Positions 3,265 through 62,512 are shown, counted from the stretch's first letter. The stretch: DNA of 64,000 nucleotides from Yuukianura sp. NJ FZ-2021 (GCA_046563655.1 JAJCTO010000012.1:62001-126000); one strand, 5' to 3'. Numbers and translations are program-made. The notes: a model not told the origin generated them from the sequence alone.

Positions 3265-3351
3265 TACTCTCGAACTTTCACTTTTCTCGCTTATAGACTT
3301 CCCTAATTGAGATGTTTGACTTCGTTAGCATTGAGTTGAGAGCTCGTTCTG

Positions 3352-3362
3352 CTCGTCCACCA
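3352..3362 (-). promoter_or_regulatory. Primer binding site, tRNA-Ala-like
   Basis: TGGTGGACGAG one base after the LTR's CA end. Confidence 0.7.
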
Positions 3363-3363
3363 T

Positions 3364-3471
3364 TGTTGGATGCTGCGTATCAACTGTCGTTTATTCAAAG
3401 ATCTACTCACACACACTCACTCTCAGTGCAAGGGCATGCAATGTCCTTGTACTGAAAGTGTGTGTGTAACA
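3364..3471 (-). repeat. 108-bp 5' LTR
   Basis: TGTT...AACA termini, AATAAA, adjacent PBS; LINE RT homology stops exactly at 3472. Confidence 0.8.
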
Positions 3472-6266: not shown

Positions 6267-6680
6267 TTCCCGGGATCATCAACGGAATTTGGGTACTTGT
6301 TCCGGTCGAACGTTTTTGCTGAAATTCGGATTTCAGAGCAGTTAACTGGTCTTAATCGCTTGTTAGATGTGAAGAGGCAATTGATAACTTATTATACTTA
6401 TCTTATTTTAGTGGATGTATTGCTCCTGGGATGCAGAGGCAGGATATGCAATCATCAGGCCATAAGCTCCCAATTTTGTTTCTGCTGATTTCGGTTGATC
6501 GATGTTTAGCACGTCGGTCTCCAAAATTATCGTTTTTGTTGTCAGATTTTGTGAGTGGAGCCGTGGTACGTTAAATCGTTGTAATGGTTTTGATTAAAAC
6601 TATTAATTAACTGTTCATTAAATGGTTTAGATGCGGAGCACTTCGCATCAGCTGTCTTTTCATTGTAGGTTAACCTAACC

Positions 6681-15200: not shown

Positions 15201-15881
15201 CTCAATGCTCTTCCTGCCGCGCAATTTGGAACTCTACTCTCCAACGACTGCCTCAGAATTGCTTGTGCCCTTCGCCTTGGAGGTGATATCTGCTTATCTC
15301 ACATCTGTAAATGCGGAGCTCAAGTTTCGACCGACGGTCTGCATGGTCTTAGCTGCCAGAAAAGCGCTGGACGTCTTTCAAGACACAATTCAGTCAATGA
15401 CTTGATCCACAGAGCTCTCCAGTCGGCTGGAATTCCATGTCTAAAGGAACCCCCTGGTTGTTCCAGATCTGATGGCAAACGGCCGGACGGAGTAACCCTC
15501 ATCCCCTGGAAAGCTGGACGATGTTTAGTTTGGGATTTTACCTGTAGAGACACCTTCGCAACTTCGTATTTGCAACTCTCTTCATCTAATCCAGGATATG
15601 CTGCTTTCCTAGCCGAGAACCAGAAACACAACCTTTACGCTGACATGGAAAATCAATTCATCGTGGGCATCATTGCAGTCGAAACTTCCGGAGTTTTCGG
15701 TGAGGAAGGTTTAAAGCTCATCAAATCCATCGGACGTCGCATCGCTGATTACACCGACATCCAGAAATCAACCACGTTCCTTTTACAACAAATCAGCCTA
15801 GCCATTCAACGTGGTAACTCAGCCTCAATTCTTGGAACTCTACCTCCAGGAAAAAATCTAGACGATATATTCTACTTTTAG
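12276..15881 (+). CDS. Retrotransposon protein: Ser-rich repeats, RFX-like winged helix, RT, CCHC knuckle and PD-(D/E)xK endonuclease
   Basis: Uninterrupted 1201 codons from a TTG; GGVRPIAIG, LDFKNAFN, GVQQGDPLGP, WYLDD, GGLGI, CKCG..HGLSC..RHN, KRPDG..WDFT, AENQK..Y, VETSG, IQRGN. Confidence 0.93.
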   Translation: MFSSAPASNFSHSSSNYSHCYSPKVSFNNEDASASSSATSFPASSEDISSLSSVPDYSDNNSRLLSVPESSKHISSLTSAPEYSENISSLLSVPESSKHISSVTSFPASNEDISSLSYVPESSEHISSLTSVPVSQSVPESSENISSLPPVPDSSENTSSPPSVPESSEHISNITSVPASSEGISSLSGSSQETSTSSAPFANFTNLSNHIRLTEEWILSNITSSSGSTIKKHDLKSRYREYCDSNKIRPVVDATLGSKLLKLFPEMTTTRASGRRHADRSYSGICWINSPSDTPDPSPNVDFGFLLAKLKTSVPILKHVPKGARRSTAECLSKFINDVISTNSIKSWHNLLLFPFFALSAPMKSDNAPNLTNWVKSNISTLTTSSILDAQSISHFKTTPRPTPIRSSEHKHSSMILSKLADGDVSGAVRLLCSDDSLAPENEATLDSLKSLHPPHPEPIQRVDQPQSDPIHFEELQVSKCISTFRNGSAGGLDSLRPQILKELISKSTGDAGSNLLSSITNFCNLVTNQPLPEDILPLFFGASLVAIEKKKGGVRPIAIGLAWRRLISKLVLSRMMKDLTTYLSPTQVGVGVKNGAEAVAHSARIYINSQHSSAKVMLKLDFKNAFNILRRDQMLQAVKSKFPPFLHYISQCYSADTDLFYGVSRIKSSLGVQQGDPLGPALFALTVHPLATSIESEFNVWYLDDATIADSPDSVLCHLEEISKKAASFGLELNTKKCEIIIIGACQSECHSIATRFRSFAPDISVCDEEHAELLGAPLTKASCRRILQLKTQDFKQISSKLAILPAHAALFLLRASVSTPRLLYFLRCFPSFLEEDLLLSYDLSLREVLTNILNISMSETAWLQSSLPVTQGGLGIRHAADYATLSFLASIHSCSNLVELFLPPDHSPFEKDFEVASRQWIENGLKIPEVPKLQHHWDLELSRHSYNQLLQHTTSLADKARLLAVASPHSGDWLNALPAAQFGTLLSNDCLRIACALRLGGDICLSHICKCGAQVSTDGLHGLSCQKSAGRLSRHNSVNDLIHRALQSAGIPCLKEPPGCSRSDGKRPDGVTLIPWKAGRCLVWDFTCRDTFATSYLQLSSSNPGYAAFLAENQKHNLYADMENQFIVGIIAVETSGVFGEEGLKLIKSIGRRIADYTDIQKSTTFLLQQISLAIQRGNSASILGTLPPGKNLDDIFYF
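12400..12840 (+). repeat. Coding 39-bp (13-aa) tandem repeat, consensus about SSEHISSLTSVPE
   Basis: About 11 degenerate copies of ATCCAGTGAACACATCTCCAGT...GTTCCAGA. Confidence 0.9.
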
Positions 15882-19947: not shown

Positions 19948-20586
19948 GTTAAACGGGCCGTAGCATGACAGTTAAGTCCTCCCTTTTTTGTTAAAAGGGG
20001 AGTGGCTTGACAGTTAGCTACTTTCTTTTTTGTTAAAAGGGGCGTGGCTTGACAGTTAGCTACTCCCTTTTTTGTTAAAAGGGGCGTGGCTTGACAGTTA
20101 GCTCCGCCTCAAGGGGCGTCGCTTGACAGTTAGCTCCGCCTCAAGGGGCGTGGCTTGACAGTTAGCTCCGCCTCAAGGGGCGTCGCTTGACAGTTAGCTC
20201 CGCCTCAAGGGGCGTGGCTTGACAGTTAGCTCCGTCTCAAGGGGAATGGCTTGACAGTTAACTCCGCCTCAAGGGGTGTGGCTTGACAGTTAGCTCCTCC
20301 CCAAGGGGCGTGGCTTGACAGTTAGCTCCACCCAAAAGGGCGTGGCTTGGCAGTTAGCTCCTCCCCAAGGGGCGTGGCTTGACAGTTAGCTCCTCCCCAA
20401 GGGGCGTGGGTTGACAGTTAGCTCCGCCCCAAGGGGCGTGGCTTGACAGTTAGCTCCTCCCCAAGGGGCATGGCTTGACAGTTAGCTCCTCCCCAAGGGG
20501 CGTGGCTTGACAGCTCCGCCCAACAGGGCGTAACTGGACAGTTAGCTCCGCCCCAAGGGGCGTGGCGCGACAGTTAGCTCCGCTTC
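19948..20586. repeat. 32-bp minisatellite, about 19 units
   Basis: Same unit; 160 bp longer than the previous array. Confidence 0.9.
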
Positions 20587-21089
20587 TTTTTAGTCTTCTG
20601 GAGACGCATGTCTACGACATGCTGAAAAAGACTATTGATACGACTTTGTCCGTCCGTTCTTTCTGTAGCCTTTTTTTAGAGCCCTTTCCACTGAAACATA
20701 AGCCTCATCGCAGTCGGGGGTTATATATCCCTCAAATGTTTTCATTAGGTCTTCCTTCCACTAAAATTCTAAAATTAACAAGAAGAAATGGCGGCTACAT
20801 TATGTTTCTGATTTTTAAGTCCTCAAAATTTTTGTAGTAGGTCTGCATTGTACTCAAAATATTTTTAAACAACGAAGTTCTGATCTACTTATTTTCTGAC
20901 ATTATCTTTAGTTACGTTGTAATGAGTTGTATGTAATGTAACGGAATTGTCGGAAAATTGGCGGAAAAAATTGTTTGCATTCAATTTTTATAAAATTGGT
21001 ATTAGTACAGTATTAGTTTTGTATTGGTATTAGTATTGGTACAAGAGGTATTGAACAACCTCTTGTAGCAACACAATTGGTTGTTATAG

Positions 21090-22099: not shown

Positions 22100-24345
22100 A
22101 TGAAGCCCCAATAGACGCTGCAAATGAATCGCTGACAATGTGGGAGGAAAACCCAATGGTTTTTCCCACTAACGAAAATATTGAAGAAAAGAAACAGGAC
22201 ACAAAAGACCGAAAATGTTTTGATGGAAACTGTTATGATTTACTAACAGAAAATGACTACGATAGTATGTACAATCTAACAAAAAATACTAAATACTACT
22301 TGTGGACCTACAGCTTCATAACGAGCGTAAAAAGAACTATGTACAGTATACTTAAAATACTAGCAAGTACTACGGACAAAAAAGAGTGGATCAGAAGGAG
22401 CGTACAAGTGTAAGTTCAGCTAGCCAAAAAAGAAAAAGTAGAAAACTGGAACGTAGAAAATGGCGAGGCAGAAGGTGAAGCGTACGGAAGGTGGCAGTTG
22501 TTCAGAGGAAGTGCAGCAGATGCTTGGAGAGAGGCCGTCCGAGTTGCTCCAAGGGCGATTCCAACGATGTAGGCGACAGACCAGTTGAAGTAGAGATGAG
22601 ACATCTTGAACGTCAGTTGCTGGATCTTGTCGGCCTCCAGGCTGGAAGTGTTGTGGATGACGGAAGGCATCGTTTTCTGCAACAAAGAGAAAAAAAAGAT
22701 TAGCAATCGCGTTAGAGTCATTGTTAGAATCCGAGTAAAGTGGTCGCTTACCATAATTGGATCAACCAATGACCTCCGAGTATCGCGCGTTGATTTGAAA
22801 ACCACCTTCGTTCAAATGGACATCATCGAGGCGGCGGTGGATGCAGCGTCAGCGAGTCCATAACTCCCGCGTAGTGACGTTGACGTGCAAGGGGGAGCAG
22901 GCAAGGGGGTTTCCGTGATGCGTGACGTCCAGTCTGCAGTGTCCGAAGGCGTTTGGCTCCAGCAACAGGGTGATCCAAGTACATCCGTTGGACAACTCGA
23001 ACATAGGGTGGATATCTGAGACGTTAGCTCCGTTCGGAAGGTAGACACCTGGAAATGGTTAGGTGAGGGTATTAAGTCACGATATGAGTTCCAGGAAAGA
23101 AATTACCAAAGGTGGTCGTCTAGAAAAAAGGATTCTTAATAACGTGGATTTGATCCGGTTGCCAGTGTCCCTCGAAGATCATTTCCACGCGAGTATCCAA
23201 CGAAAAGTCATCCATCACCTCAGCGTTGATTAGTAATGGCTCGACTAGTGCTGCAGTGTATCCATCTTCGTCCATGTCTCCAGGCACCTCTTCTCCAAGT
23301 TCTTCCACGATGGGTTCCAGTTCGTACACCCAATTCGTAAAGTAGTTGGCCAGGAGCTGGATGGCAGTTCCTGAAGTTTCTTCCTTGCCGAACATCTGCG
23401 CTGGCTTCAGATCTTCTTCTGGCTGCATCACGTAGCGGTGTCCGCCTCGAACAGTTCCTCGGCGTCCGATTGGTCGACTGGGCGATGTGTCCTTTTCCTC
23501 AAACCGAAGCTGGGACTGCAGCTCATCTCCCATCATGAGTCCCGGCATTTTGTCCAAGAAGGTGGATTCATCTAGACTGGTTGGACTCTCCAGTCCTCCA
23601 GGAAGTCCTTCGGGGTCATCCTTCAAGCGTCCAGTCATGCCTTTTTCAGCAGTTGAAGTCTCCGCTGAGTGTTGAGGTGGGGCCATCCTTCAGTGGTGGC
23701 GTAGGGTCCAGTAGTGGGGCTTCAAGTTCTCAGATGGAGTCGAGTGGAGGTCCGCCAGAGTCTTCCTCGGTAGCTGCAGTAGCGCCGGAGTCTCCGCTGA
23801 GTGTTGAAGGTGTCTTCTGGTGGCCGAAGTCTCCGCTGTGGTCCTGGTCCTTTGCTGGAGTTGAGTGGAGTTTGGCAGAGTCCTCTTCGTTGATTGTAGT
23901 AGTGGTTGTAGTCTCCGCTGTGTGGTGGGTCTCCGGTGGGGCCTTCCTTCCTTCGGTGGGTTGGTTGGAGAGAGTCTTCCTGGAGCTCTTTCCTCTTCGA
24001 CGTCTGGCGATGGAATGAAGTCTTCTCCTGGTTTCACCAAGAATGAAACCTCTGTTCCTTGGTTTTCTAGGAGGGAAGGAATTTACCCTTTTCCTTTGTT
24101 CCAGGGGCACGTGGTTGGACTTTGCCCTCCACGCATTCCTTTCGTGATCCTAAGGTGAGTTCAATGTCAAACGACCCTCGTTTCCCCCAGCAACCGAATT
24201 TGACGGTCACTTGAAGGTCAAAACGACCCTTTTCCGCACTGACAACGACATTAGAGCTTGTTTCAATGTCAACCTTCCCCGGTCTCCCCCAGCAACAGCT
24301 TCAATGTTGCTTCAAGGTCAAACAGCCAATTCAACGTCAGACTTC
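22100..24345 (-). pseudogene. Piwi-derived chimeric locus, left copy; its 5' part continues at 31487-31820
   Basis: Piwi N-terminal signature GRRG..RGG...TSGTAIQLLANYF (23339-23470); decayed terminal exon IHNTSSLEADKIQQLTFKMSHLYFNW..AYIVG (about 22500-22676); GT-AG intron and 3' region shared with 36685-36902 and 46523-47290. Confidence 0.8.
23120..23686 (-). CDS. 188-aa ORF: Piwi-like N-terminus to ANYF fused to unrelated acidic sequence
   Basis: ORF track; Piwi similarity ends abruptly after ANYF. Confidence 0.5.
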   Translation of the reverse strand: MAPPQHSAETSTAEKGMTGRLKDDPEGLPGGLESPTSLDESTFLDKMPGLMMGDELQSQLRFEEKDTSPSRPIGRRGTVRGGHRYVMQPEEDLKPAQMFGKEETSGTAIQLLANYFTNWVYELEPIVEELGEEVPGDMDEDGYTAALVEPLLINAEVMDDFSLDTRVEMIFEGHWQPDQIHVIKNPFF

Positions 24346-24478
24346 TGTTACAAGTTGAACGAGTGGAGTGATCAGTGAAGACTGACCTCTCGTGTTTTAT
24401 TCAAGTGCCTTATATAGGGGAAAGGTTTGACGTCATACCATGACGTCCATAAGCATACCTAACACGCCTACCATAACA
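24346..24478 (-). repeat. 133-bp 3' LTR
   Basis: TGTTA...TAACA termini; minus strand has TGACGTCA, TATATAA and AATAAA in promoter order. Confidence 0.82.
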
Positions 24479-24825
24479 ACAGAAGATTGTCCTCAATCGG
24501 ACATAAATGTATGATTAAAGATATAATGTATATTTGAAAGAGAGAAAGAAAGAGAGGGAAAGAGAGAGAGGAGTTGGAATTAATTTGTGTTAGTTTTTGG
24601 AGTTTTTTTTTTTGTTTTTTTTTTGTTTTTTTTTTCTGGACGTTTTAGTTTTGTTTTTATGGGTTTTTCTGTTATGAGACATAAGCTAAGAAAAGAAAGT
24701 TAAGAATGAGCGGAGATGGAAAGATTGAAAGGGAAGAGAGTAAAGGAGTAAATGATTAAAGTTATGTGATGACCGAGTAGTGTAAACTCCAAATGTTTTG
24801 ATAAAGTGTAATTGGATGTTGTGAT

Positions 24826-25575
24826 TTATGCGGAATCTTCCTCGGACGTAGAAGATCCGGAGGAGGATCCGGATGATGACGAGGAGCTGGACGATGCGGA
24901 GCTAATTGGAGGTCGGTCATCCTTTCCCGTGAGACGAGGACGAGTTTTGCGATGAGTTTTGCGTGGTGGGGTCTCGGTGCTAGTGACGCTGGTGATGGGT
25001 GCGGAAATTGGAGATGGTGTTTGAGCTGGAGCCGGGTCTGGAGATGTAGTGGGTGGTTCTTCGGGGATGGTGGCTGGGTGCGATGTTGTTTTGGAACTAA
25101 TGATGATTGGTTTTGTGCGTTTGCGGAGTGGAAATGCAGCTTGTGGAACTATGGGGTGTGTCGGACGGTCGCTGCTGGTGACGATATCTGGACACTTGCT
25201 GGACACAGTGTGAGATTTGTTGTATGGATTGGGCACGAGAGATGGGGAGACGGGATGTTCGTGGACACGGGAACTATGTGGGGTGTAGTCCGGACGTCCT
25301 TGTCTGGTGAAAACAGGTTTGGCAGAATTCTGGCGGTACGCGCGCGTGGGGATCGGTAGGATGGGGATAGAGAATAACGATTTTGGTGCTGGTGGGTCTG
25401 GAGATCGGAAGTGTGACTCCGGCCGTCTTGGGGGGTATGGGTGGTATGGAGGGTGATTTAGGCGGGAAAAAAGTTTACGCACAAAATCCCGTTGAGCACG
25501 CTCGTAATTTCGAAAACTCTCCCAAAACTCGTCAGCGAAATTATCGGTACTGTATGGTGGGGTAGAGCGAGACAT
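24826..25575 (-). CDS. Pro/Ser/Thr/Arg-rich putative accessory ORF (ORF-C)
   Basis: Open frame 24826-25620 with first ATG at 25575 (about 249 aa); short helical N-terminus (FADEFWESFRNYERAQRDFVRKLF), basic patches, Ser/acidic tail. Confidence 0.65.
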   Translation of the reverse strand: MSRSTPPYSTDNFADEFWESFRNYERAQRDFVRKLFSRLNHPPYHPYPPRRPESHFRSPDPPAPKSLFSIPILPIPTRAYRQNSAKPVFTRQGRPDYTPHSSRVHEHPVSPSLVPNPYNKSHTVSSKCPDIVTSSDRPTHPIVPQAAFPLRKRTKPIIISSKTTSHPATIPEEPPTTSPDPAPAQTPSPISAPITSVTSTETPPRKTHRKTRPRLTGKDDRPPISSASSSSSSSSGSSSGSSTSEEDSA

Positions 25576-25663
25576 GGTGGGTTGTGTTTGATTAAGATGT
25601 GAGTGTGGCCAACGAGACACAAGGACTGGAATAAATTTTTAATTGAAAAGTGATTTTATATTT

Positions 25664-26290
25664 TTAATCAGTAAGAGGAGGAAACGAGTTTGTTCGTGGT
25701 AACGAAATTGAGGAATTGTGAGTGGTCTGGATGTCGCCATCGGAATGTGGCGATGGCCGTGACATTGGTATGTCGAATGGTCGTGACCTTCCGTGCTTGC
25801 GCTTATATTGGTAGCAGTTGTTGCATAAGAGAGCAGTTTTGACGTCGCGCCAGCAGAAAGTGTGGGTAATGTTGCAATTGGTGCATCGTCGTTCAGCAAT
25901 GTATGGAATGGGAATGGAATGTTTGGGCTGAGTTGGATAAGGAGAAATTCGTCTTATGGGGGTGCTGTCCTTCCGGGTTCGCCTGGGATGTGGGTATGGA
26001 GGTGGTTCAAGGGGGGGTGGGAGTGGCGGTGTGAAGTTGGTATGCCGTGGGTCGGTATGGTGGGTGGTGGGTGTGAAGGGGGTACATGGTGGGACGCTAT
26101 GGGAAATGGTGGGTGGTACGGGAGTGCATTGTGGGTCGGTATGGTGGGTGCGTGTAACAGGTGCGGCATCTTCACTTTTATCAGAGGCTACGGCAAATAG
26201 GAAAAGAAAAGTTGCTTGGGCAGCACAAAGAAATTGGTCAGTGAGTTTTAAAAAATGGTCTTGGACGGCTTGTTTGTTTTGCGGAGCCAT
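25664..26290 (-). CDS. GATA-type zinc-finger putative accessory ORF (ORF-B)
   Basis: 208 aa, ATG start; CTNCNITHTFCWRDVKTALLCNNCYQYKRKHGRSRP = C-x2-C-x16-C-x2-C with GATA-like T..WR and Y...HG..RP. Confidence 0.8.
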   Translation of the reverse strand: MAPQNKQAVQDHFLKLTDQFLCAAQATFLFLFAVASDKSEDAAPVTRTHHTDPQCTPVPPTISHSVPPCTPFTPTTHHTDPRHTNFTPPLPPPLEPPPYPHPRRTRKDSTPIRRISPYPTQPKHSIPIPYIAERRCTNCNITHTFCWRDVKTALLCNNCYQYKRKHGRSRPFDIPMSRPSPHSDGDIQTTHNSSISLPRTNSFPPLTD

Positions 26291-26328
26291 AATGATGAGT
26301 GATCTGAGAAGGTAAATTGATTTGCCTT

Positions 26329-26649
26329 TTATAAGTGGCAGGGTGATTGATTCAATTGGAACAGGTTTTCTGTCAACCCGGGTGGGAGTGGGTTTGTACT
26401 AGTGGATGTGAGCTGCAGAGTCACAATATTAGGGGGCTCCGCTTGGGAGTGGGTGATGGGATCGGCTTCCTCATCTTTCACTGTTTTAGCATTGGGGGAA
26501 AGTGTTGACAGGATATAACGGAGTACCATGAGAATAATAATTAAAATGATTGTGATTTCGAGTAGTAGGGAGTTTTCGATGCTTTCCAAGATAATGTTCG
26601 CCGTAGTGTTCTCGGCGCGTGTGGTTAAGGGGAACGTAAGCATGGACAT
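26329..26649 (-). CDS. Small single-pass membrane ORF (ORF-A), or frameshifted env tail
   Basis: 106 aa; hydrophobic LLLEITIILIIILMVL; overlaps the env stop. Confidence 0.5.
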   Translation of the reverse strand: MSMLTFPLTTRAENTTANIILESIENSLLLEITIILIIILMVLRYILSTLSPNAKTVKDEEADPITHSQAEPPNIVTLQLTSTSTNPLPPGLTENLFQLNQSPCHL

Positions 26650-28489
26650 AGAAGGGCTAAGTATGCCAATTTTCCATGAAATAAAAAGGACCCATAAGGT
26701 GAGCAGGGTTAGCCAAATGGAGGATGAGAATGCTAGGTGGGTTGCGACGAAGTGAACTGCGGGGATGTCGGTGTCGTTGAGGGGCTGGGCTGGCCGAAGG
26801 GTATGGATGGATAGATTGAGGTGAGGGATTTCAGCGTGCCAATTAGGATTGAAAATCTCATGATGGCCGTAAAATTCGTTTTGGTCATTGAGAATTGTGG
26901 AATTTAGATTGGTCCATACTGCAGGTAGTAAATGATGGACTTTTGCACTGTTTTAGGATACCCAGGGAAAGTTATGTGTAATGGTTGTCAGATTGCCTTG
27001 CAAAGTACAATTGCACGGCAGTGTAATTTCCAGTGCCCCAATGTCATGGAGGGGTGGGATGAGGAGGAGTGTGTCATTGCAAGATAAGGTTAAAGTTTCA
27101 ACGGGGTTGAGTATTGAAAATTGGTATGGGGTGATTTCTGTGACAATTGTTGCGATTGACGTACGCGGGGCGCAAGTTAGTACGCATGCGTTTTTGAGGT
27201 CCTCCACTGTGGTATGATAGGAAAATAGGTACGTTAGGCAGTTGGTAAATAAATTTGGTCTATAATTAAAACGGGGAATATAGCAGAGGCCCGTGTTGGA
27301 TATGTCGCATTTTTGTGCATCCGTGCCCTGAATCGGGTAGAATTTCGTTCCTTGGGTGATGATTAGTGTGGCGTCTAAATGTATCTCGCAAATTTCCTCC
27401 ATATAGAGGAACGGAATGGGGGTTAGCTGCACCGGGCGGTATATAGGTTTGGAGTGGAATATAGGGATCTTGACCGTAAGTATGAGACGTTTTTCCGAAA
27501 ATGTACAGGTTGTTAGGGGCAGATGGTAGTATTGGTCGAGCTGGTCCATTGGAATAGCCAAATTTTGGTGGACGGAAAATATCGAGGTGTTAAGTCGTAC
27601 CACATCTTTTCGTAGTGTTTGTCTCGGGACAATGAATCTGGGTAGTCGATTGTGTTGACAGTCGTTGAGTGTCATTGTCCATATTGTCGCAATGACGGAT
27701 TGTTGCCATCCCGCCGCAAGAAGAAGGATTGCTCGAGAATTGTCAGAGACAACGTGGTGAAGTTTATCTTCGTCTTCGAATACCTGAGCGAACTCGTGTC
27801 CCCAGTGGTCCTCGATTTTCTCCATAGTGGAGTTGAGACTGTCTGAGTAGGAATTCAGGATTTTTGATACCTAGTAAGTCCTGATTTTCGGTTAGTAGTT
27901 TTTGTTGGACGGTATTCGTGAATGCATTCATTTTGGCTTCTGTGGCATGAATATCTTCTAAGTTTTTCTGGGTAGCGAAACCACAGCACCACTCATAAAA
28001 TGAGGATACAAATGATAGACTGCGTTGAGTTCGGATTGCGTTAGATCGGTTTGGGTTCGGCGTTTTCTTTGGGGTAAGAGGAAATAACCGTTGTACTGAC
28101 TGAAGAATATGTTGGAGGGTAAGTAGCGTGGGGTTGGTTGTTGACGTGTCCTCGTAATTTAGAACAGCTTCTGGCAAATCAGTTTCGTAGATGAGGGGGA
28201 AGGATGAATCGTAGGTAACAGCCGGGACTGCCTTATGTTGGACGCCTTTCACAATTTTTGTTGTGATTTCTGAGGGGTTTGCCGCAGCCTTTCCGAGTAA
28301 TAGACGTAGGATGTAAAGGATAATGATAAAAGACAGCCATGGGTGAATGATGAGGTAATGGTTTAGTGGCCGGTGTATTTTTGGCCGGCGTCGTGGGTTG
28401 TTTCCTGGGGTATTCGAAATGGTAGGGCCGATCCTTCCTGGTGGGATAACCATTGAGGTGGTTCGTTGGAAACGTTGTCGACGGGGCAT
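26625..28489 (-). pseudogene. env: env: class I fusion glycoprotein-like (baculovirus F/errantivirus-type layout), one frameshift and one stop
   Basis: Signal peptide, furin-like RTQR (28022-28033), fusion-peptide-like SLSFVSSFYEWCCGFA, heptads, Cys-rich ectodomain (LPCNC), NxS/T sites, TM IWLTLLTLWVLLF; frameshift near 27862, TAA at 26953. Confidence 0.82.
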
Positions 28490-28589
28490 GCTTAATTGAT
28501 GTGTTTGGTGGGAGAGTTGATGGTGGAATGAGCTGGTAGATTCGTGGAGTCTTGCTTTTATTGCTCCATGGTGCTGGGACGTGTGGGTT

Positions 28590-31097
28590 TTAGTATTTGT
28601 AGCTAACGGCCTTCCGTGGGCGTAGAGAGTATCTAGATGGAGCTGGAGGTGAAGGAGGTGGGGCCTCTGTTCTTGGGTCAGTGGTTGTGACTGAGCGGTT
28701 GGTGGTTGGTGGCTCGTTGTTTGCTGTTTGTATCGAGGGTTCTCCGCTTGAAGGAGGGCTTTCTGGTAGCGGTATTTCTTTTGGGTGGTGATTCATATTT
28801 GTGATCTTCGGGGAGGGGACTTGCACGGGCAAAGTGGGATGGGGATTATGAGGCTCATTAAGTGTGTCACTTATGGTGTTAGGGTCGCGTGCAAAGTAGG
28901 GTTTTAATTTCTCCACGTGAACTGTTTCACGGCGGTGTCGTTTCCCATGCTTCCCTTCTATGACGTAGTTAACTGCTGAGATTTTCTCGACGACTTTATA
29001 CGGACCAAAGTAGTATTTAAAAAGTTTGGACGATAAGCCTTTACGTTTGATGGGCTTACGGAGGAGAACTTGGTCTCCTATGTTATAACTGGTTTCACGT
29101 CTTCCTGTGTTAAAATATGCTGCTGAACGTGCTTGAGATTTATGTATCCGTTCGCCTGCTAGAATTCTAGCCTTTTGGAGGTATTTGACCATGTCTTCCA
29201 GAGTTTGGAATTCACTTTCTGCCTCTAAAGAAGCTTCGATAGGCATTACTGCCTCTCTTCCGTAAACAAGAAAAAAGGGGGAGAACTGAGTGGTTTCCTG
29301 GACGGCTGTGTTTATGGCAAAAGTGATGTATGGCAGGAATTCGTCCCAGTTGCGTTGGTTTTCCTTGGTGTATATTGATAAGCATGTTGTCAGTGTGGAA
29401 TGGCTGCGTTCGACCAGCCCTTGTGATTCAGGATGGTAAGCGGTACTGAATGCTTGTTCAATATTTAGCTTAGAGCAAATAACTTTCAGCAGTTCGCCTG
29501 TGAAAGTTCGTCCTCTGTCGCTTTGTATATGACGTGGACACCCATGTCGACATATAATTTGTTCAATAATAAATTTTGCTACTACTTCGGTTGTCGCGGA
29601 GGCAACAGCGCGTGATTCTATCCATTTCGTTAAATAGCATATTGCTGTAATTACGTATTTCTTGCCGGAGGCAGTACGGGTCATAGGGCCCATTATATCG
29701 ATTTGAACTTTTTCCATTACGCCTGGAGTGAACGTCATATGCTGGAGAAGGCCTGCTGGTTTTATGCGGGGAATTTTTCGACGTTGACATGCGTCACAGG
29801 TGTGAACATACGTTTTTATATTTCTGGCCATGTGAGGCCAAAAGTATCGTGTTTCTGCGCGGTGTTTAGTTTTGGAGTATCCTAGATGTGCTGATAGGGG
29901 CCCGTCATGGCATTCGGCTAAAATGGATGGAATTAAGGTTGCCGGGATCACCGGTACGAAGCGTCCTGTTTTGGAGTTATAGTGTCGTATTATGTCCATT
30001 ATAGCGTAGTGTTGTAATTTTGGGAGTATATCATGGTTGGTCAATAAGCGGTTACGTAATTGCATGAGGGTGTGGTCGTTTGCTTGGGCGGACATTAGGA
30101 TTTGTGGGCTTGCAAACAAGATGGGAATATCGCTTAGTTCTTCGATCTCGTCGTCATTAAGGTGTTTTCGGGGTTGAGGGACATCGACAGGGAACCTAGA
30201 TAGACAGTCTGGAAGATGTTTCTGTCCGGAGACATGATATATTCCTTCGATTTGGTAACAGGAAATGAATTCTACCATTCGAACTAGTTTTGGAGGTAAT
30301 TCAACTTTCTTGGCTTTGAGAATCCAACAGAGAGCGTGATGGTCTGTACGGACGGAAAAGTCTTTGCCCTTGATAAAGGTTTGGAATTTTTTAATGCCAT
30401 AAACAACGGCCAATAATTCTATTTCAGTGGTAGTCCAATTCTTTTGGGGCTTGGTTAGTGCTCGACTGGCGCATGCAACAGGGCGTTCGTTACCATCGAC
30501 AATTTGAAGCAGGCATGCACCTAGTCCAAAAGTGGAAGCGTCAGTGGACAAAATGGTTTTCCGATCGGGATCAAATAGGATTAATGCGGGTGCTTGTAGC
30601 AGTAGTTGCTTTACGTCGTCGAACGTTTTTTGTTGGTCACTGCCCCATTCAAATTTTGCATCACTAGGCATGAGTTTACCTAATGGTGTGACCAGTTGGG
30701 CGTAGTTGAATATAAATTTGCGGAAGTACGAGAAGAATCCTAGAATTTGTTGTAATTGTTTTTTAGTTGTGGGCGTTTGTAGATTTTTAACACCTTTGAC
30801 AGTAGTGGGGTCAGGTGTGATTCCTTCGCTCGTAAGTTCAAACCCCAGTATGTGAATGCGCTGGTATAGTAGGTCACACTTATTGGGTTGCATTAGTAGG
30901 GGTTCGGCTTGTAATCGTGCAAAGACTTGCTCGAGTCGGGTGATATGTTCGTCAAATGTTTTGGAATATATGGTAATATCGTCAATGTAGCAAAGGCATA
31001 TTGAGTTTTTGAGGTCGCCAAGGACGAGATCCATTAGTCTCGCGAATTGTGGGGGGCTGTTGCACAGCCCGAAAGGCATAACCTTGAATTGAAATAA
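28590..31097 (-). CDS. pol: pol (RT from motif B, RNase H, integrase), open but 5'-truncated
   Basis: VMPFGL, YIDD, TDAS, EIELLA, TDH, HHCC, IDIMGP, SDRG, GLVER, GPY. Confidence 0.95.
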   Translation of the reverse strand, partial: LFQFKVMPFGLCNSPPQFARLMDLVLGDLKNSICLCYIDDITIYSKTFDEHITRLEQVFARLQAEPLLMQPNKCDLLYQRIHILGFELTSEGITPDPTTVKGVKNLQTPTTKKQLQQILGFFSYFRKFIFNYAQLVTPLGKLMPSDAKFEWGSDQQKTFDDVKQLLLQAPALILFDPDRKTILSTDASTFGLGACLLQIVDGNERPVACASRALTKPQKNWTTTEIELLAVVYGIKKFQTFIKGKDFSVRTDHHALCWILKAKKVELPPKLVRMVEFISCYQIEGIYHVSGQKHLPDCLSRFPVDVPQPRKHLNDDEIEELSDIPILFASPQILMSAQANDHTLMQLRNRLLTNHDILPKLQHYAIMDIIRHYNSKTGRFVPVIPATLIPSILAECHDGPLSAHLGYSKTKHRAETRYFWPHMARNIKTYVHTCDACQRRKIPRIKPAGLLQHMTFTPGVMEKVQIDIMGPMTRTASGKKYVITAICYLTKWIESRAVASATTEVVAKFIIEQIICRHGCPRHIQSDRGRTFTGELLKVICSKLNIEQAFSTAYHPESQGLVERSHSTLTTCLSIYTKENQRNWDEFLPYITFAINTAVQETTQFSPFFLVYGREAVMPIEASLEAESEFQTLEDMVKYLQKARILAGERIHKSQARSAAYFNTGRRETSYNIGDQVLLRKPIKRKGLSSKLFKYYFGPYKVVEKISAVNYVIEGKHGKRHRRETVHVEKLKPYFARDPNTISDTLNEPHNPHPTLPVQVPSPKITNMNHHPKEIPLPESPPSSGEPSIQTANNEPPTTNRSVTTTDPRTEAPPPSPPAPSRYSLRPRKAVSYKY

Positions 31098-31820
31098 TGG
31101 GTTGGTTGGAGAGAGTCTTCCAGGAGCTCCTTCCTCTTCGACGTCTGGCGATGGAATGAAGTCTTCTCCTGGTTTCACCAAGAATGAAACCTCTGTTCCT
31201 TGGTTTTCTAGGAGGGAAGGAATTTACCCTTTTCCTTTGTTCCAGGGGCACGTGGTTGGACTTTGCCCTCCACGCATTCCTTTCGTGATCCTAAGGTGAG
31301 TTCAATGTCAAACGACCCTCGTTTCCCCCAGCAACCGAATTTGACGGTCACTTGAAGGTCAAAACGACCCTTTTCCGCACTGACAACGACATTAGAGCTT
31401 GTTTCAATGTCAACCTTCCCCGGTCTCCCCCAGCAACAGCTTCAATGTTGCTTCAAGGTCAAACAGCCAATTCAACGTCAAACTTCCCTATCTAAACACC
31501 ACCAGCAATAACCTTTAAAGTTACCCAAGGTTAGCATAAAATAATATTCAACAGAGAGCGCCAAATTCAAACTTATAAATCTAAAGTAAAGCGCGCCAAA
31601 ATTCAAAAATTACAAAAACAATTCAACTGCTACAGCCAAGTTCAAACCTAAACAGAAACCAATATGGAAGCGCGGAATAGCATCAGTAGATGGGAGATGG
31701 ACAGGAATCTGCATACTAAATAAATTAAAAATTAGGATATTGCTGAAATAGAAACATTTAGCAATATATTTCCATTTAGGAATTTTACTCTCCCGGCCTA
31801 AATTGGACCAATCGGATTTT
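31098..31820 (-). repeat. 5' module of the Piwi-derived locus; left arm of an inverted repeat; 31098-31486 duplicates 23957-24345
   Basis: Near-identical to the reverse complement of about 34726-35450. Confidence 0.92.
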
Positions 31821-34050: not shown

Positions 34051-35569
34051 GGAGGAGGCCATCATTGAGGAGGAGAACACCGGCACGGCTGACGGGCTGT
34101 TTTATCTGAAGATACTCAGAAAAGTCATTTTGGTCAACATGGACAGATTCACAAAACCAGAGAATTCTGCAAATTCGCCCTCAGTTCTGTCTCCTGTGGC
34201 CAGCTATCTAAACAGGCCATCGTCGTTTTCCGAAGATTTAGCAACTTTGACAATGTCAGGATATGGGAATTCTTTATTGAATTTATCATTTAGCTAATTG
34301 TTGATAACCCCAATGCAATAGTGAGATCGGAGGTGCTTCAGAATCTATCGCATGTTATAAACAACTACTGTGTCAGGCTTGGGACGAAAAGAATGAAGGG
34401 CTCGTTTGATTATGACGTTCAGACTGAAACACGCAGAATCGTCAGGGGACTTCTGATGGATTGGATGAAGCAACTGGACTGGGCAGTACTGTTCCAGTAG
34501 TTTTGGACTTCGTACTGGAAGGCCCTTCTGTGGATGATGGGATAGTTCCACTGGTGGCTTTGGATGCAGATGCTTCCTTGATGGCACTCAGAATCTTGGC
34601 TTTTGGTTTCCCTGGAAAACCAACACAAGAGACAAACTTTATGCTTCTTTATGTTGTGACATAATGATTTGGTTAGATTTATGTGAAGATGAAATGATGA
34701 AAATGAGAATTACTGATTCCGATAGTAAAATTCGATTGGTCCAATTTAGGCCGGGAGAGTAAAATTCCTAAATGGAAATATATTGCTAAATATTTCTATT
34801 TCAGCAATATCCTAATTTTTAATTTATGGAGCATGCAGATTCCTGTCCATCTCCCATCTACTGATGCTATTCCGCGCTTCCATATTGGTTTCTGTTTAGG
34901 TTTGAACTTGGCTGTAGCAGTTGAATTGTTTTTGTAATTTTTGAATTTTGGCGCGCTTTACTTTAGATTTATAAGTTTGAATTTGGCGCTCTCTGTTGAA
35001 TATTATTTTATGCTAACCTTAATGGTAACTTTGTAGGTTATTGCTGGTGGTGTTTAGATAGGGAAGTCTGACGTTGAATTGGCTGTTTGACCTTGAAGCA
35101 ACATTGAAGCTGTTGCTGGGGGAGACCGGGGAAGGTTGACATTGAAACAAGCTCTAATGTCGTTGTCAGTGCGGAAAAGGGTCGTTTTGACCTTCAAGTG
35201 ACCGTCAAATTCGGTTGCTGGGGGAAACGAGGGTCGTTTGACATTGAACTCACCTTAGGATCACGAAAGGAATGCGTGGAGGGCAAAGTCCAACCACGTG
35301 CCCCTGGAACATAGGAAAAGGGTAAATTCCTTCCCTCCTAGAAAACCAAGGAACAGAGGTTTCATTCTTGGTGAAACCAGGAGAAGACTTCATTCCATCG
35401 CCAGACGTCGAAGAGGAAGGAGCTCCAGGAAGACTCTCTCCAACCAACCCACCGAAGGAAGGGAGGCCCCACCGGAGACCCACCACATAGCGGAGACTAC
35501 AACCACTACTACAATCAACGAAGAGGACTCTGCCAAACTCCACTCAACTCCAGCAAAGGACCAGGACCA

Positions 35570-35860
35570 CAGCGGAGACTTCGGCCACCAGAAGACACCT
35601 TCAACACTCATCGGAGACTTCGACTGCTGGAAAAGGCTTCAACCACCGACTGCAGCCACCAGAGAACACTCCAGCGGACCTCTACTCAACTACAGCGGAA
35701 AGCTTAACACTCGCGGAGACTTCGGCCACCAGAAGACACCTTCTACACTCAGCGGAGACTTCGACTGCTGGTAGAGGCTTCAACCACCGACTGCAGCCAC
35801 CAGAGAACACTCCGGCGGACCTCTACTCAACTACAGCGGAGAGCTCAACACTCAGCGGAG
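35570..35860. repeat. About 141-bp tandem duplication with CGGAGACT sub-repeats
   Basis: CGGAGACTTCGGCCACCAGAAGACACCTTC at about 35573 and 35714. Confidence 0.8.
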
Positions 35861-36012
35861 ACGCCGGCGCTACTGTAGCTACCGAAGAAGACGCCAGCGG
35901 ACTACTCGACTCAGCAGAGGACAAAGGCCACATCGGAGCGGAGCCCCACTGAAGACTCCGATTAAGAACTTGCGTCTGGGACACCGCAGGACTTCACTTC
36001 CGAAGACGACCG

Positions 36013-36564
36013 ATGGAACAGCCAAGAGAAGCCATGCGGCCATTTGGTCAGTGCCACATCTGTAGCGAAAATCCCCAGCCTCGCACTCTGTTCCTCATTC
36101 ATTTCTGTGGAATATTGCTTTGCCTCCGCTGCACTGCTGTTCGGAACCGTCATCACTCCATTTGCCCGCACTGCCGTGGACCCTCGACTCCAGTCGGCGC
36201 ATGCACAGCTCAGGAATACCGAAACTATGCCATCGCTTGTCTAGACCAAAATGCTGTCGATCCTGTCCCACCGGAAAATGCTCCTGTGCTGTCGACCTTC
36301 ACATTCAGGCATCGTGGTCCAGCTCTCATTGCTCCCACTGACCCGGTTCCCACTGCTGCACCAGCCCCTCGACGCTGTCTCACTTGCGACCACTGTGGAC
36401 GTGTTTTAAAGTCCACTTCTGCCAAGTCAGAACACATGAGGACACACACCCGCCCAACATTCCGCTGCAACATAGCCGGATGTGAGAAGACGTTCGCAAC
36501 AAAGTCGGGCCTTCGGAAGCACAAGCTTGGACGAGCACATCGACAACATTTGTTACTGGAGTAA
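36013..36564 (+). CDS. RING-like plus two C2H2 zinc-finger protein, 183 aa
   Basis: CHIC..HFCGILLCLRC..CPHC (the usual CGH His is Ile); CDHCGRVLKSTSAKSEHMRTH; CNIAGCEKTFATKSGLRKHKLGRAH; ATG to TAA, no introns. Confidence 0.75.
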   Translation: MEQPREAMRPFGQCHICSENPQPRTLFLIHFCGILLCLRCTAVRNRHHSICPHCRGPSTPVGACTAQEYRNYAIACLDQNAVDPVPPENAPVLSTFTFRHRGPALIAPTDPVPTAAPAPRRCLTCDHCGRVLKSTSAKSEHMRTHTRPTFRCNIAGCEKTFATKSGLRKHKLGRAHRQHLLLE

Positions 36565-37338
36565 CTTTTTGCATTTCTTTACTTTTGTGAGACCTAAACC
36601 GAAAATTAGTTTTTTTTACAGAATAATTTTGCAATGGAACCTTCGCCACGTTTTCCTAAACCGGATTTCTTTTTTTATTTTCAGTTCCATGATGTCCATT
36701 TGAACGAAGGTGGTCTTGAAATCAACGCGCAGTAGATGGAGGTCGTTGGTTGATCCAATTAAGGTAAGCAATCACTTTACTCAATTCTAATGAGGATTCT
36801 AACACTGACTCAAACACGAGTGCTAATTTTTGCTTTTCTCTTTGTTGCAGAAACGATGCCTTCCGAACAGACCATCATCCACAACACTTCCAGTCTGGAT
36901 GCTGTGAGTAACCCCGCCGGGCGGGATTACTCACTTCGTCTCCAAGCATAGGTATGTGACGGCTCTCGGGATGAGGCTATGATCTCAGTCATATCCCGAT
37001 GGTCAGTCAGTGAGTGGTGAGCGCTTGGTCGAGGAGGAACTATCTTCCAGATGGTTCCTCTTCCGACCGAGAGTCACGGCGGAGTCCAGTCACTGGAGTA
37101 GGGAGATTCTAGAGACAATAAAGGAACGTAGCCACACTTTGCCTTCGTCTACGACTTTCCTTTGACAGCATTCAGCCATATTCCTCAGCCACGATTCTTA
37201 GAGCTGGCACCCAGGGCCTGCGCCACCTCGGTGGTGTTCGGACCTGGGCACAGAGGTCGATGAACCAGTGGACCGCCGACCAAGCGGCGACGTGTGTGAC
37301 CCATGTCCAGGTTCACCCTGGCTGGGAGGTCACATAAA

Positions 37339-37355
37339 TGGCCCTTCGACCGGAT
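37339..37355 (+). promoter_or_regulatory. Primer binding site, tRNA-Tyr-like
   Basis: TGGCCCTTCGACCGGAT resembles the Tyr PBS TGGTCCTTCGAGCCGGAT; same sequence follows the LTR at about 62950. Confidence 0.7.
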
Positions 37356-37584
37356 CGACTTTCTTGTCCAGTTAAGGTAATAGAACAACAGGTAATGTAT
37401 GGTACGTTTTTTTTTCTTTTTCGTTATAATACTAATTATCATTGCAAAACCTACAAAACAAAAACCACAAGCAGCCAACCCTTAAGGCGACATGTTGCTC
37501 AACACATCGGCGATACATTGAGCGTTTACATATTATTTCACGTTGGGAAACTAGCGAATACAATCCCAACACACGTAAAGTTGG

Positions 37585-46522: not shown

Positions 46523-46787
46523 GTACGACTTCTATCTGGTTGCCGCCACTGCTCGCCAAGGCACCGTGAGTCCCTGCTCCTACACCATCATCCACGACAC
46601 GTCCAGCCTCGATGCCGACAAGATCCAGCGACTAACGTACAAGATGTGTCACCTCTACTTCAACTGGTCTGGCAGTGTAGCAGTCCCTGCACCGTGTCAA
46701 TACGCCCACAAGCTCGCCTACTTGGTTGGAATCGCACTCGGAGCAACACCCAACGCCTCTCTCCAGCATCTGCTGCGCTTCCTCTGA
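46523..46787 (+). pseudogene. piwi: Piwi-clade Argonaute terminal exon with an intact frame
   Basis: After a T-tract-CAG acceptor: YDFYLVAATARQGTVSPCSYTIIHDTSSLDADKIQRLTYKMCHLYFNWSGSVAVPAPCQYAHKLAYLVG...LRFL*. Confidence 0.93.
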
Positions 46788-62400: not shown

Positions 62401-62512
62401 CACGATTCCAAACAGCTTGTCCCACCTAATAACAAGTACAAGAGTACAACGTTGTTGAAATGTCAATCACTAATCAAAAAAGTAAGGTAGGCAAGTAACA
62501 AGTAAGTACCTC

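Follow-up and report, generated by a model that had tools for sequence, protein, structure and literature searches.

In complex retroviruses, which belong to the Retroviridae, regulatory genes follow env, ahead of the 3' LTR (tax/rex in HTLV, tas/bet in the foamy viruses); their mRNAs are spliced and take a start codon from further upstream. The env-carrying Ty3/gypsy elements of metazoans known as "errantiviruses" are described in one study as having the three ORFs gag, pol and env (Chary & Hayashi, eLife 2026, PMC13524379); its main text nowhere uses the words "accessory", "zinc finger" or "GATA". In the Ty3/gypsy element Cer1 of C. elegans, another study reports that a spliced mRNA encodes the protein CERV, which genomic RNA requires for its export (Sun et al. 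2023, PMC10309623); the account cited does not describe Cer1 as carrying env and further ORFs.

LTR retrotransposons also capture additional ORFs (Rodriguez et al. 2017, PMC5408684), "downstream of env" is among the positions of captured ORFs listed in a review (Arkhipova & Yushenova 2019, PMC6431247), and the MDG1 group of Drosophila carries sORF1/sORF2 (PMC11952523). In the passages of these three sources drawn on here, the captured ORFs are a GDSL esterase, a DEDDy exonuclease, membrane proteins and small fusogen-like ORFs, and, unlike the ORF-B described below, none has a GATA-type finger. The initial annotation of the present DNA had stated that no example of an invertebrate element with regulatory genes after env was described. 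This was too strong, since extra ORFs downstream of env (PMC6431247) and a regulator in Cer1 (PMC10309623) are already published, to judge from the parts of these papers that are available. Full-text literature searches found no GATA-finger ORF in an env-bearing Ty3/gypsy element.

The element considered here lies on the minus strand of a window of 64,000 nt (the whole stretch of DNA that was analysed, one strand, with positions counted from its first letter). Its layout is like that of HTLV and the foamy viruses, and by analogy spliced expression with a borrowed upstream start would be possible, whereas the family is Metaviridae-like, homology is absent and Pfam finds only the GATA finger downstream of env. 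The element is like the errantiviruses (PMC13524379) in having a Ty3/gypsy pol with, downstream of it, an env that weakly resembles Baculo_F, and in occurring in multiple near-identical copies, but it differs from them in having a further 1.86 kb with two ORFs after env and an LTR of only 119 nt. With Cer1 (PMC10309623) it shares the condition of an invertebrate Ty3/gypsy element with an extra non-structural protein, which in the case of CERV is nuclear and acts on the expression of its own element; no search revealed any sequence likeness of the Cer1 protein to ORF-B or ORF-C. The captured ORFs of PMC5408684, PMC6431247 and PMC11952523 resemble ORF-B and ORF-C in being additional ORFs enclosed by the LTRs of invertebrate LTR elements.

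The best explanation of the locus as a whole, to which we give about even chances, is that a young, multi-copy element family carries a captured 1.86-kb accessory module of two ORFs between env and its 119-nt LTR, that the second of these ORFs encodes a disordered Pro/Ser-rich protein, and that the window holds a dead copy of the family, inserted in a repeat ("repeat X") with 389 nt duplicated.

Anatomy of the element and its insertion site

By its domains and their order, the minus-strand feature is recognizable as a 5'-truncated, env-bearing Ty3/gypsy (errantivirus-like) element, which reads, on that strand, partial pol, env, ORF-B, ORF-C, a 361-nt spacer and a 119-nt 3' LTR. The pol fragment (28590-31097, minus strand) retains RT (C-terminal part only), RNase H and IN, with the Pfam domains RVT_1, RT_RNaseH_2, RT_RNaseH, Integrase_H2C2, rve, SH3_Tf2-1 and Integrase_p58_C; RT, RNase H and integrase stand in Ty3/gypsy order, and 332 relatives are found at E <= 1e-20. 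The RVT_1 match covers only profile positions 111-205 of 205. The copy is cut at 31097, where it directly abuts the unrelated repeat X, and Pfam, the junction sequence and repeat comparison revealed no gag, PR or N-terminal half of RT in the copy within the window. In public contigs RT continues past 31098, and in one of them (run X4, record 26) 2620 letters separate an LTR end from the pol sequence at 31098; full-length copies thus hold about 2.6 kb that the window copy does not. The Ty3/gypsy pol domains, together with an env homologous to that of a related unit, L002, bear out the errantivirus-like, env-bearing character given in the initial annotation, as do the base frequencies its claim of a shared A/C-rich sense strand, which is G-poor throughout, with a G fraction of 0.13-0.17 for pol, env, ORF-B and ORF-C.

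The 3' LTR (24346-24464, minus strand), the only LTR of the element in the window, starts with TGTTA, ends with TAACA, and contains a TATA box, an AATAAA, a single TGACGTCA palindrome and one further GACGTCA; inspection by eye shows no evident GATA motif in its 119 nt. Its boundary is set by two contigs (run X4, records 26 and 27) whose match is confined to 24345/6-24464/5, with other letters flanking it on each side, and several different flanks occur at 24346 among the loose ends of runs X3 and X4. The spacer between ORF-C and the LTR (24465-24825, minus strand) contains an A-rich tract at about 24600-24650 and a CT-rich tract; repeats at 24534-24641 inside it were skipped in the contig search.

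Outside the LTR lies a 389-nt copy of repeat X (23957-24345), a direct repeat, at 99.2% identity, of a second 389-nt copy (31098-31486) that adjoins the truncated pol. This direct repeat is a duplicated target and not the LTR. Repeat X runs uninterrupted elsewhere in the window (34727-35778). Empty-site contigs, with loose ends at 24345 and 31098, are seen among the public runs.

env and the two ORFs that follow it

The env gene (26329-28489, minus strand), delimited by reading frames, BLASTP and MAFFT, is broken at two places, the number already annotated: the frame shifts near 27870, and an in-frame TAA occupies 26953-26955. Both sites read differently in public contigs. Read through, with X at the stop, the gene aligns by BLASTP with the intact env of L002 (E 8e-75; 31% across 423 aa). 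L002, the nearest retrievable relative and the sole one with a homologous env, comprises gag, pol and env in intact form, and its contig stops 26 nt past env. The Baculo_F match lies below the Pfam cut-off of 24.1 bits both in env (22.1 bits, E 6.7e-5) and in the env read-through (21 bits, E 1.5e-4). The L002 env has no Pfam match and its AF2 model (pLDDT 32) is unusable; a PDB profile search for the fusogen type of env matched nothing relevant.

Three closely spaced, intronless ORFs on the same strand had been annotated after env, the first of them, "ORF-A" (26329-26649, 106 aa, minus strand), as a small TM protein. This ORF continues the frame of env 27870-26956 beyond the single stop; the BLASTP alignment to the L002 env runs across the stop and into it, and in the MAFFT alignment its hydrophobic segment is matched with the C-terminal anchor of that env. 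ORF-A as an independent gene is rejected on these grounds. By frame and alignment it supplies env with its membrane anchor and tail, within the last third of that gene, so there are two post-env ORFs and not three. The other two do lie between env and the 3' LTR, with the sizes and compositions annotated: ORF-B (25664-26290, minus strand, 208 aa) and ORF-C (24826-25575, minus strand, 249 aa). ORF-C is rich in Pro, Ser, Thr and Arg and has a poly-Ser acidic C-terminus; it matched no Pfam family and had no relative in any database search.

In a G-poor, A/C-rich strand stop codons are few, and it is therefore necessary to consider that both ORFs are long by chance, the finger in ORF-B being a decayed relic and neither ORF a gene. 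When the 1864-nt post-env region was shuffled 2000 times with dinucleotides preserved, the longest ATG-initiated ORF reached at least 249 aa in 0.65% of shuffles, the second-longest reached 208 aa in none, and ORFs of at least 249 and at least 208 aa accordingly never occurred together; the two ORFs exceed the chance expectation of length. We regard the compositional explanation as improbable, although it would accommodate the unusual openness of all three sense frames (stop-to-stop lengths of 128, 104 and 102 aa in the other frames), the low complexity of ORF-C, which is without a relative, and the weak margins of codon usage. Codon-usage scoring trained on pol and env ranks the annotated frame first of three for both ORFs, by small margins (0.014 vs -0.043 for ORF-B, 0.045 vs -0.017 for ORF-C); pol and env themselves score 0.10-0.19 vs -0.14 or lower.

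The 17 coding differences from a contig of run X1 are all silent or missense. ORF-B has 6 nonsynonymous and 5 synonymous differences (dN/dS 0.38, P 0.10), ORF-C 4 and 2 (dN/dS 0.68, P 0.48), and the pooled ratio over the 17 differences is 0.47 (P 0.10), so that purifying selection is not significant. Differences between young copies are mostly post-insertion, which leaves the test little power either way. The initial annotation had also pointed out that the ORFs are open despite the lesions in env; this carries no weight, since the probability of no stop given 17 substitutions is 0.58, and that of no lesion at the env lesion rate is 0.28.

The GATA-type finger and candidate splice sites

ORF-B consists of a predicted N-terminal helix (residues 5-37), three P/T/H-rich 14-aa repeats, encoded by a 42-nt tandem (26028-26153), and one single zinc finger followed by a basic tail (residues 134-178, 25775-25891), in which the annotated C-x2-C-x16-C-x2-C occupies residues 136-159. 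Outside the finger no database search gave a relative, and no homologue of ORF-B or ORF-C is present at any of 61 fetched retroelement loci. All 16 matches in a PDB sequence search with ORF-B are GATA factors, the best being GATA-1 (E 3.9e-8), with MED-1 at E 1.1e-6. In a library search all 150 matches listed overlap the finger, two of them at E <= 1e-10, and PF00320 is present in each of the 20 top matches scanned. The best finger matches are 38-54% identical and are spread over a springtail, fungi, a nematode and chytrids. Nine residues are invariant in 16 aligned sequences (C136, C139, W147, R148, C156, N157, C159, Y162 and R170), and the retention of all four Cys, of W, R, N and Y and of the basic R-P tail, together with the E value to GATA-1, speaks against a decayed relic.

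The likeness extends to cellular single-finger GATA factors such as C. elegans MED-1 (PDB 2kae), with which ORF-B shares the pattern C-x2-C...W-R...C-N-x-C...Y-x-(R/K)...R-P and the basic tail; it differs from them in its retroelement context, in the unrelated remainder of the protein and in a loop that is one residue shorter. With 16 residues this loop falls outside the definition C-x2-C-x17/18-C-x2-C, and in the HMMER alignments it shows a gap of one residue against GATA-1 and GATA-3 and of two against MED-1. Several consensus positions differ, and ORF-B has NNCYQY where the alignment consensus has NACGLY. The family assignment made in the initial annotation was upheld by the PDB search; the PF00320 profile match (E 5.2e-5), at 23.2 bits, lies below the gathering cut-off of 26.8. 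AF2 models the finger with pLDDT 89-95 over residues 131-170, and each of the best 17 Foldseek matches listed (ranks 1-18) is a GATA finger, most of them at 1.0-1.8 Å; since an alignment of GATA proteins went into the model, this support for the fold is partly circular. Taken together, the alignments identify the finger of ORF-B as a real but atypical, divergent GATA-type finger.

Upstream of ORF-B, an AG at 26399-26400 (minus strand) is a candidate 3' splice site. It stands directly before a junction at 26398, at which a 74-nt DNA contig (run X4, record 29) joins other sequence to the element exactly behind the AG. The ORF-B frame opens exactly at 26398 with no ATG between that position and the ORF-B start, and the 30 upstream letters of the contig that are shown have an in-frame ATG three codons before the junction and no stop; no place in the element was found for these letters. 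This one DNA contig hints at splicing of an ORF-B message. The second candidate 3' splice site, predicted from sequence alone, is a pyrimidine/T-rich run ending in CAG (25626-25640, minus strand), 50 nt before the ORF-C start; the ORF-C ATG is the first ATG downstream of the CAG. Start contexts are good for both ORF-B (A-3/G+4) and ORF-C (CCACCATG), and each ORF begins at the first ATG after a candidate acceptor, which again argues against an origin by composition alone.

We infer from these features that ORF-B would be translated from a subgenomic mRNA spliced at the AG of 26400-26399, its in-frame ATG coming from an exon further upstream, and that its finger would bind nucleic acid. If it does, then ORF-B may modulate transcription from the LTR of the element or of host genes, and could represent a virus-borne gene regulator. 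That ORF-B is functional for the element has, in our judgement, somewhat less than even chances, and functionality of ORF-C is less probable. A bolder reading, which we consider unlikely, is that the lineage has independently become "complex", ORF-B being a sequence-specific DNA-binding transactivator of GATA type and ORF-C its disordered partner, both expressed from spliced subgenomic mRNAs. If this were true, these mRNAs would borrow the start codon of an upstream exon, as tax/rex or tas/bet do, and the proteins would act on the CRE/TATA-bearing mini-LTR or on host genes under GATA control.

Recurrence and origin of the post-env region

One check named in the initial annotation was whether the post-env ORFs recur in other copies with a dN/dS below 1. 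The recurrence is observed, since ORF-B and ORF-C follow env contiguously in contigs of four public runs from two organisms; the dN/dS of 0.47 is the pooled value given above, which does not reach significance. In run X1, record 1 (1617 nt) covers 24650-26266 with 21 substitutions and no gap, record 2 (26237-26659) bridges the tail of env into ORF-B, and record 3 spans the same env/ORF-B junction at about 86% likeness (51 differences, 9 gap letters). In run X3 (organism B), record 19 spans 25677-27569. All copies seen are 86-99% alike. These contigs support the conclusion that the extra region after env is a property of the element family and not of the window copy alone.

The same contigs bear on whether the ORF-B/C segment is instead a separate mobile unit, nested in the master copy or forming a short non-autonomous LTR element of its own, its link with env being secondary. 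The junction of record 29 in run X4, which joins 26398 to other sequence, could be read in this way, as could the word depth in that run (45.7 for the ORF-B/C contig vs 18.9 for the env-pol contig), a depth that is no copy number. Against it, word depths in run X1 are similar for ORF-B/C, env and pol (232, 241 and 272), and contigs bridge env into ORF-B in runs X1 and X3. The initial annotation had named a target-site duplication or terminal inverted repeats of the segment's own as contrary evidence; none flank it, only 12-17-nt AT-rich pairs. We consider a separate unit very improbable.

The module envisaged in our preferred explanation would once have been captured and would now be carried as an accessory. 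The region could also be passenger cargo: the master would have captured a cellular mRNA, or that of another transposable element, behind env by template switching, and a burst would have spread it without benefit to the element, the ORFs being open only because the family is young. Copies so alike would owe the presence of the region to a single master, and dN/dS does not differ significantly from 1. The capture of occasional ORFs downstream of env by LTR retrotransposons, as reported in PMC6431247, provides a precedent, and the C content of ORF-B and ORF-C (0.38) exceeds that of pol and env (0.28-0.31). Two separate ORFs with good start contexts would nevertheless be odd for one captured mRNA. 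The searches found no donor gene, the finger matches being only 38-54% identical and taxonomically scattered, and the alternative junction, which brings in an in-frame ATG, lies precisely after an AG. We consider passenger cargo somewhat unlikely.

The indels point both ways between cargo and an accessory module. The only one seen in ORF-B, a 6-nt deletion in record 28 of run X4, is in frame, which argues against cargo, whereas ORF-C is cut or partly deleted in some contigs, as cargo would allow (record 28 departs at 25157, and a contig of run X3 has a joint at 24383-25005). Finally, the A-rich tract lies about 180 nt beyond ORF-C with a CATAAA 20 nt upstream of it; it resembles, and could be, the poly(A) relic of a captured mRNA, in keeping with cargo.

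The element and its host repeat

The minus-strand element at 24346-31097 belongs, as a truncated copy, to a young Ty3/gypsy family with an env gene and, after it, a module of two open reading frames (ORFs). Its pol ORF extends from the first ATG at 31079 to 28590, in a frame that is open up to 31223, and contains Ty3/gypsy-type reverse transcriptase (RT), RNase H and integrase domains by Pfam, the RVT_1 match beginning only at profile position 111 of 205.

The long terminal repeat (LTR) of the element is distinct from the duplicated sequence of X, the unrelated repeat that hosts it. Direct repeats of 389 nt at 23957-24345 and 31098-31486 (99.2% identical) were considered as LTRs and rejected, because the same sequence is unbroken, with both flanks, in the third copy of X, which lies inverted at 34727-35778; also against them are empty X sites in contigs (with loose ends 24345 and 31098) and the LTR's true end, at 24346. 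On the minus strand, the 119 nt that finish at 24346 begin TGTTA, close with TAACA, and contain TATATAAGG, AATAAA, a perfect TGACGTCA palindrome and, 13 nt away, a second GACGTCA; the two motifs, at 24428-24447 just upstream of the TATA box, are candidate CRE/ATF-like sites. Among contigs of the compared sequencing runs (X1 to X4), record 27 of X4 matches the window in 24346-24464 alone, with different letters on either side, while record 26 of X4 (7029 nt) follows the window from 24465 down to 24345, continues for 2620 letters absent from it, and resumes from 31098 down to 28083. Additional contigs show other flanks at 24346. These matches and flanks place the LTR at 24346-24464.

RT continues beyond 31098 in contigs of X2 and X3. 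Full-length copies hold about 2.6 kb missing from this copy, presumably the leader, gag, protease and the N-terminal half of RT, and the window copy is a 5'-truncated fragment within X, accompanied by a 389-nt duplication of X. The fragment is flanked by this direct duplication of its target, and the inverted, unbroken X lies 2.9 kb away; LTR elements do not usually combine 5' truncation with a target duplication of this length, and the arrangement may go back to illegitimate recombination of a filled X copy with an empty one. The long X copies at 22633-24345 (minus strand) and 34727-36902 (plus strand) have ends in common, 80-99% identical, and differ in their middles: the former holds a 188-aa ORF (23120-23686, minus strand) with no Pfam match, and the latter a 203-codon open frame (35953-36564, plus strand) whose Pfam match is to C2H2 zinc fingers. 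Repeat X also includes 141-nt tandem repeats at 35572-35853, and in X1 the contigs over its flanks exceed the element severalfold in word depth.

The env frame and the ORFs that follow it

Three ORFs were counted after env in the initial annotation, all on the minus strand: ORF-A (106 aa, 26649-26329), ORF-B (208 aa, 26290-25664) and ORF-C (249 aa, 25575-24826). The last two stand, and ORF-A proves to belong to env. In a three-frame translation, one frame takes in both env 27870-26956 and env 26952-26332, with a TAA at 26953-26955 as the sole separator, and ORF-A is the final 106 codons of this frame. A read-through env, in which X replaces the stop, aligns over 423 residues with the intact env of L002, a metagenome contig carrying a related gag-pol-env element (31% identity, E 8e-75), in an alignment that crosses the X and takes in 13 residues at the start of ORF-A; the hydrophobic stretch of ORF-A is also aligned by MAFFT with the C-terminal hydrophobic stretch of L002 env. 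ORF-A is therefore the end of env, and the post-env ORFs number two.

The other env lesion is a frameshift near 27870, which sets off the N-terminal piece (28489-27764) from the second, overlapping piece (27825-26953). At both lesions public contigs carry letters other than those of the window, which restricts the lesions to this copy or a few copies. Other copies have defects of their own in X3 and X4 contigs, namely the loss of 1 nt from the env tail at 26672 and a 483-nt skip in env at 27599-28083; the family is thus decaying as well as young. The middle env piece has a Baculo_F match below the Pfam cut-off (E 6.7e-5, 22.1 bits against 24.1). A profile of two env sequences searched against the PDB gave nothing relevant on the env fold, and the AF2 model of L002 env, with a pLDDT of 32, was left out of structure searching. 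Rfam and tRNA scans of the element region were empty.

The 1864-nt post-env region is rather open in all three frames and short of G on its sense strand, where A makes up 0.29, C 0.35, G 0.12 and T 0.24. In 2000 dinucleotide-preserving shuffles of this region, the longest ATG-initiated ORF reached 249 aa or more in 0.65%, and the second-longest never reached 208 aa (0/2000). For both ORFs the annotated frame comes out best in a codon log-odds model built from pol and env, but by small margins (over the three frames, 0.014, -0.043 and -0.255 for ORF-B; 0.045, -0.017 and -0.187 for ORF-C), and leave-one-out pieces of pol and env score 0.10-0.19 against -0.14 or lower. That the two ORFs are a chance product of composition is a reading to which we give very little credence. 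The further argument of the initial annotation, that the ORFs have stayed open despite a broken env, has no force: the probability of no stop after 17 substitutions is 0.58, and that of no lesion at env's rate is 0.28.

The stretch is contained in four runs, of which X3 comes from organism B and the other three share a single sample of organism A; they belong to two studies and are all classed, by guess, as DNA. Their contigs carry env, ORF-B and ORF-C contiguously. From X1, record 1 covers 24650-26266 with 21 substitutions and no gap, and record 2 covers 26237-26659, an interval also present in a second contig about 86% alike; records 9 and 10 of X2 carry parts of ORF-C and ORF-B, record 19 of X3 covers 25677-27569, and record 28 of X4 covers 25157-26398 with a 6-nt in-frame deletion. 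Word depth in X1 is similar for ORF-B/C (232), env (241) and pol (272), depth not being equivalent to copy number. Between the window and the X1 contig, 6 missense and 5 silent differences fall in ORF-B, 4 and 2 in ORF-C, and none creates a stop; dN/dS is 0.38 for ORF-B (P 0.10), 0.68 for ORF-C (P 0.48) and, for the two taken together, 0.47 (P 0.10), none of them significant in what is a weak test for young copies. ORF-C is partly lost in some contigs, record 28 of X4 departing at 25157 and an X3 contig joining 24383 to 25005. By reading of the X1 and X2 contigs, the stop that bounds the ORF-C frame upstream is a sense codon there, and the frame continues without a stop as far as the 3' part of ORF-B. 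A function of ORF-B for the element is a tentative proposal, somewhat short of an even chance, and the alternative that the module is passenger cargo is only slightly less probable.

The predicted finger of ORF-B and a hint of splicing

The GATA zinc finger that had been proposed for ORF-B is borne out by its matches to GATA factors, with the reservation that it is divergent and falls below the Pfam cut-off (residues 136-168, E 5.2e-5, 23.2 bits against 26.8). All 16 matches obtained with phmmer among solved structures at E <= 1 are GATA factors, and residues 134-178 match GATA-1 at 3.9e-8, GATA-3 at 1.5e-7 and C. elegans MED-1 at 1.1e-6. A HMMER search of 1.84 billion representatives listed 150 matches at E <= 0.001, all of which overlap the finger, two at E <= 1e-10 and none at 1e-30; the best 20 of these 150 all contain PF00320, and none contains a retroelement domain. 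Since the named sources among the best matches span a springtail, basidiomycetes, a nematode and chytrids, no donor stands out.

Residues C136, C139, W147, R148, C156, N157, C159, Y162 and R170 of ORF-B are invariant in a 16-sequence alignment, from which AlphaFold modelled the finger with a pLDDT of 89-95, predicted a helix over residues 5-37 (pLDDT 71-83) and left the rest disordered. The best 17 rows that Foldseek listed for this model (ranks 1-18) are all GATA fingers, an agreement that is partly circular because the model leaned on GATA sequences. The finger is atypical in its 16-residue loop and at several consensus positions, and the middle of ORF-B consists of three 42-nt (14-aa) tandem repeats. 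As judged from sequence matches and the predicted fold, this is a genuine but divergent GATA-type finger.

A hint as to the expression of the ORFs comes from record 29 of X4, a 74-nt contig in which 44 other letters are joined to 26398. The window's minus strand has an AG at 26400-26399, directly before the junction, and since this AG belongs to a TAG, the ORF-B frame opens exactly at 26398. No ATG occurs between 26398 and the ORF-B start; the 30 upstream letters shown for record 29 contain an in-frame ATG three codons before the junction and no stop, and a 25-letter piece of this upstream sequence is absent from the window. Ahead of ORF-C, a T-rich run ends in CAG at 25626, and the first ATG downstream is that of ORF-C, in the context CCACCATG; for the ORF-B start, position -3 is A and position +4 is G. 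The junction, which is that of one short DNA contig, and the start contexts would be compatible with spliced subgenomic mRNAs and a DNA copy of one of them.

Relatives, origin and significance

No search found relatives of ORF-C or of ORF-B outside the finger. Pfam gave no match for ORF-C, NCBIfam gave nothing, and the ESM Atlas no usable match for ORF-C or, with GATA clusters left out, for ORF-B (best 0.79). ORF-B found no relative among viral or metagenome contigs, and env found none among viral contigs, where pol retrieved only one distant locus (26% identity). The nearest pol relatives are 58% identical (74% coverage) and, over full coverage, 47% identical, the latter being L002. Sixty metagenome loci were retrieved through the nearest pol relative, and in the set of 61 loci L002 alone has a homologous env; ORF-B and ORF-C matched 0 of the 61 (the L002 contig stops 26 nt after env), and the GATA pattern was not found in their six frames. 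L002, the closest fetched relative, is apparently intact over 1-8238, with gag (277-2022), pol (1947-5792) and env (5912-8212, a 767-codon frame with no Pfam match) all open.

About 180 nt after ORF-C lies an A-rich tract, with CATAAA 20 nt upstream of it, which could be a poly(A) relic. The C content of ORF-B and ORF-C is higher than that of pol or env, and both features fit the capture of an mRNA. Target-site duplications or terminal inverted repeats belonging to the ORF-B/ORF-C segment itself, which the initial annotation had named as evidence against its proposal, were not found beyond short AT-rich pairs.

The placing of ORF-B and ORF-C after env resembles that of tax/rex and tas/bet; the layout is alike, but there is no homology. 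Elements of the Ty3/gypsy type with an F- or gB-type env are widespread across animal phyla and have been described as simple gag-pol-env units of three ORFs (PMC13524379); the main text of that study does not contain the words "accessory", "zinc finger" or "GATA". A passage in a review states that LTR retrotransposons may capture ORFs "downstream of env" (PMC6431247), and other accounts mention varied ORF3s in bdelloid elements (PMC5408684), small accessory ORFs in MDG1-group elements (PMC11952523) and the regulator CERV of Cer1, made from a spliced mRNA (PMC10309623). A full-text literature search found no GATA-finger ORF in an env-bearing Ty3/gypsy or like element. If ORF-B is functional, retrovirus-like elements outside the Retroviridae can gain a transcription-factor-like regulator of their own, and the 119-nt LTR with the 208-aa protein would form a small testable system, which might reveal how a mobile element governs the place and time of its own expression, or how it disturbs host GATA-dependent programmes. 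If the module is only cargo, it would still be a clean case of a gene captured behind env and then spread in a recent burst.

The window contains several other repeats. A second, different Ty3/gypsy element occupies 1-3024 on the minus strand (gag-like ORF 3024-2407, pol 1858-2) and runs off the window start; its gag and pol are 27% and 38% identical to those of L002. At 13074-15881 (plus strand) an intact 935-aa ORF has an RVT_1 match (E 3e-23) but lacks LTR-element domains; it probably represents a non-LTR retrotransposon. A 32-nt unit forms a tandem array at 20015-20609, with at least 13 offsets in register, and 22113-22663 is 69% like 46585-47177. A repeat family at 36902-37493, 45839-46270 and 62512-63105, with copies 96.6-99.5% identical, adjoins the end of the inverted X copy.
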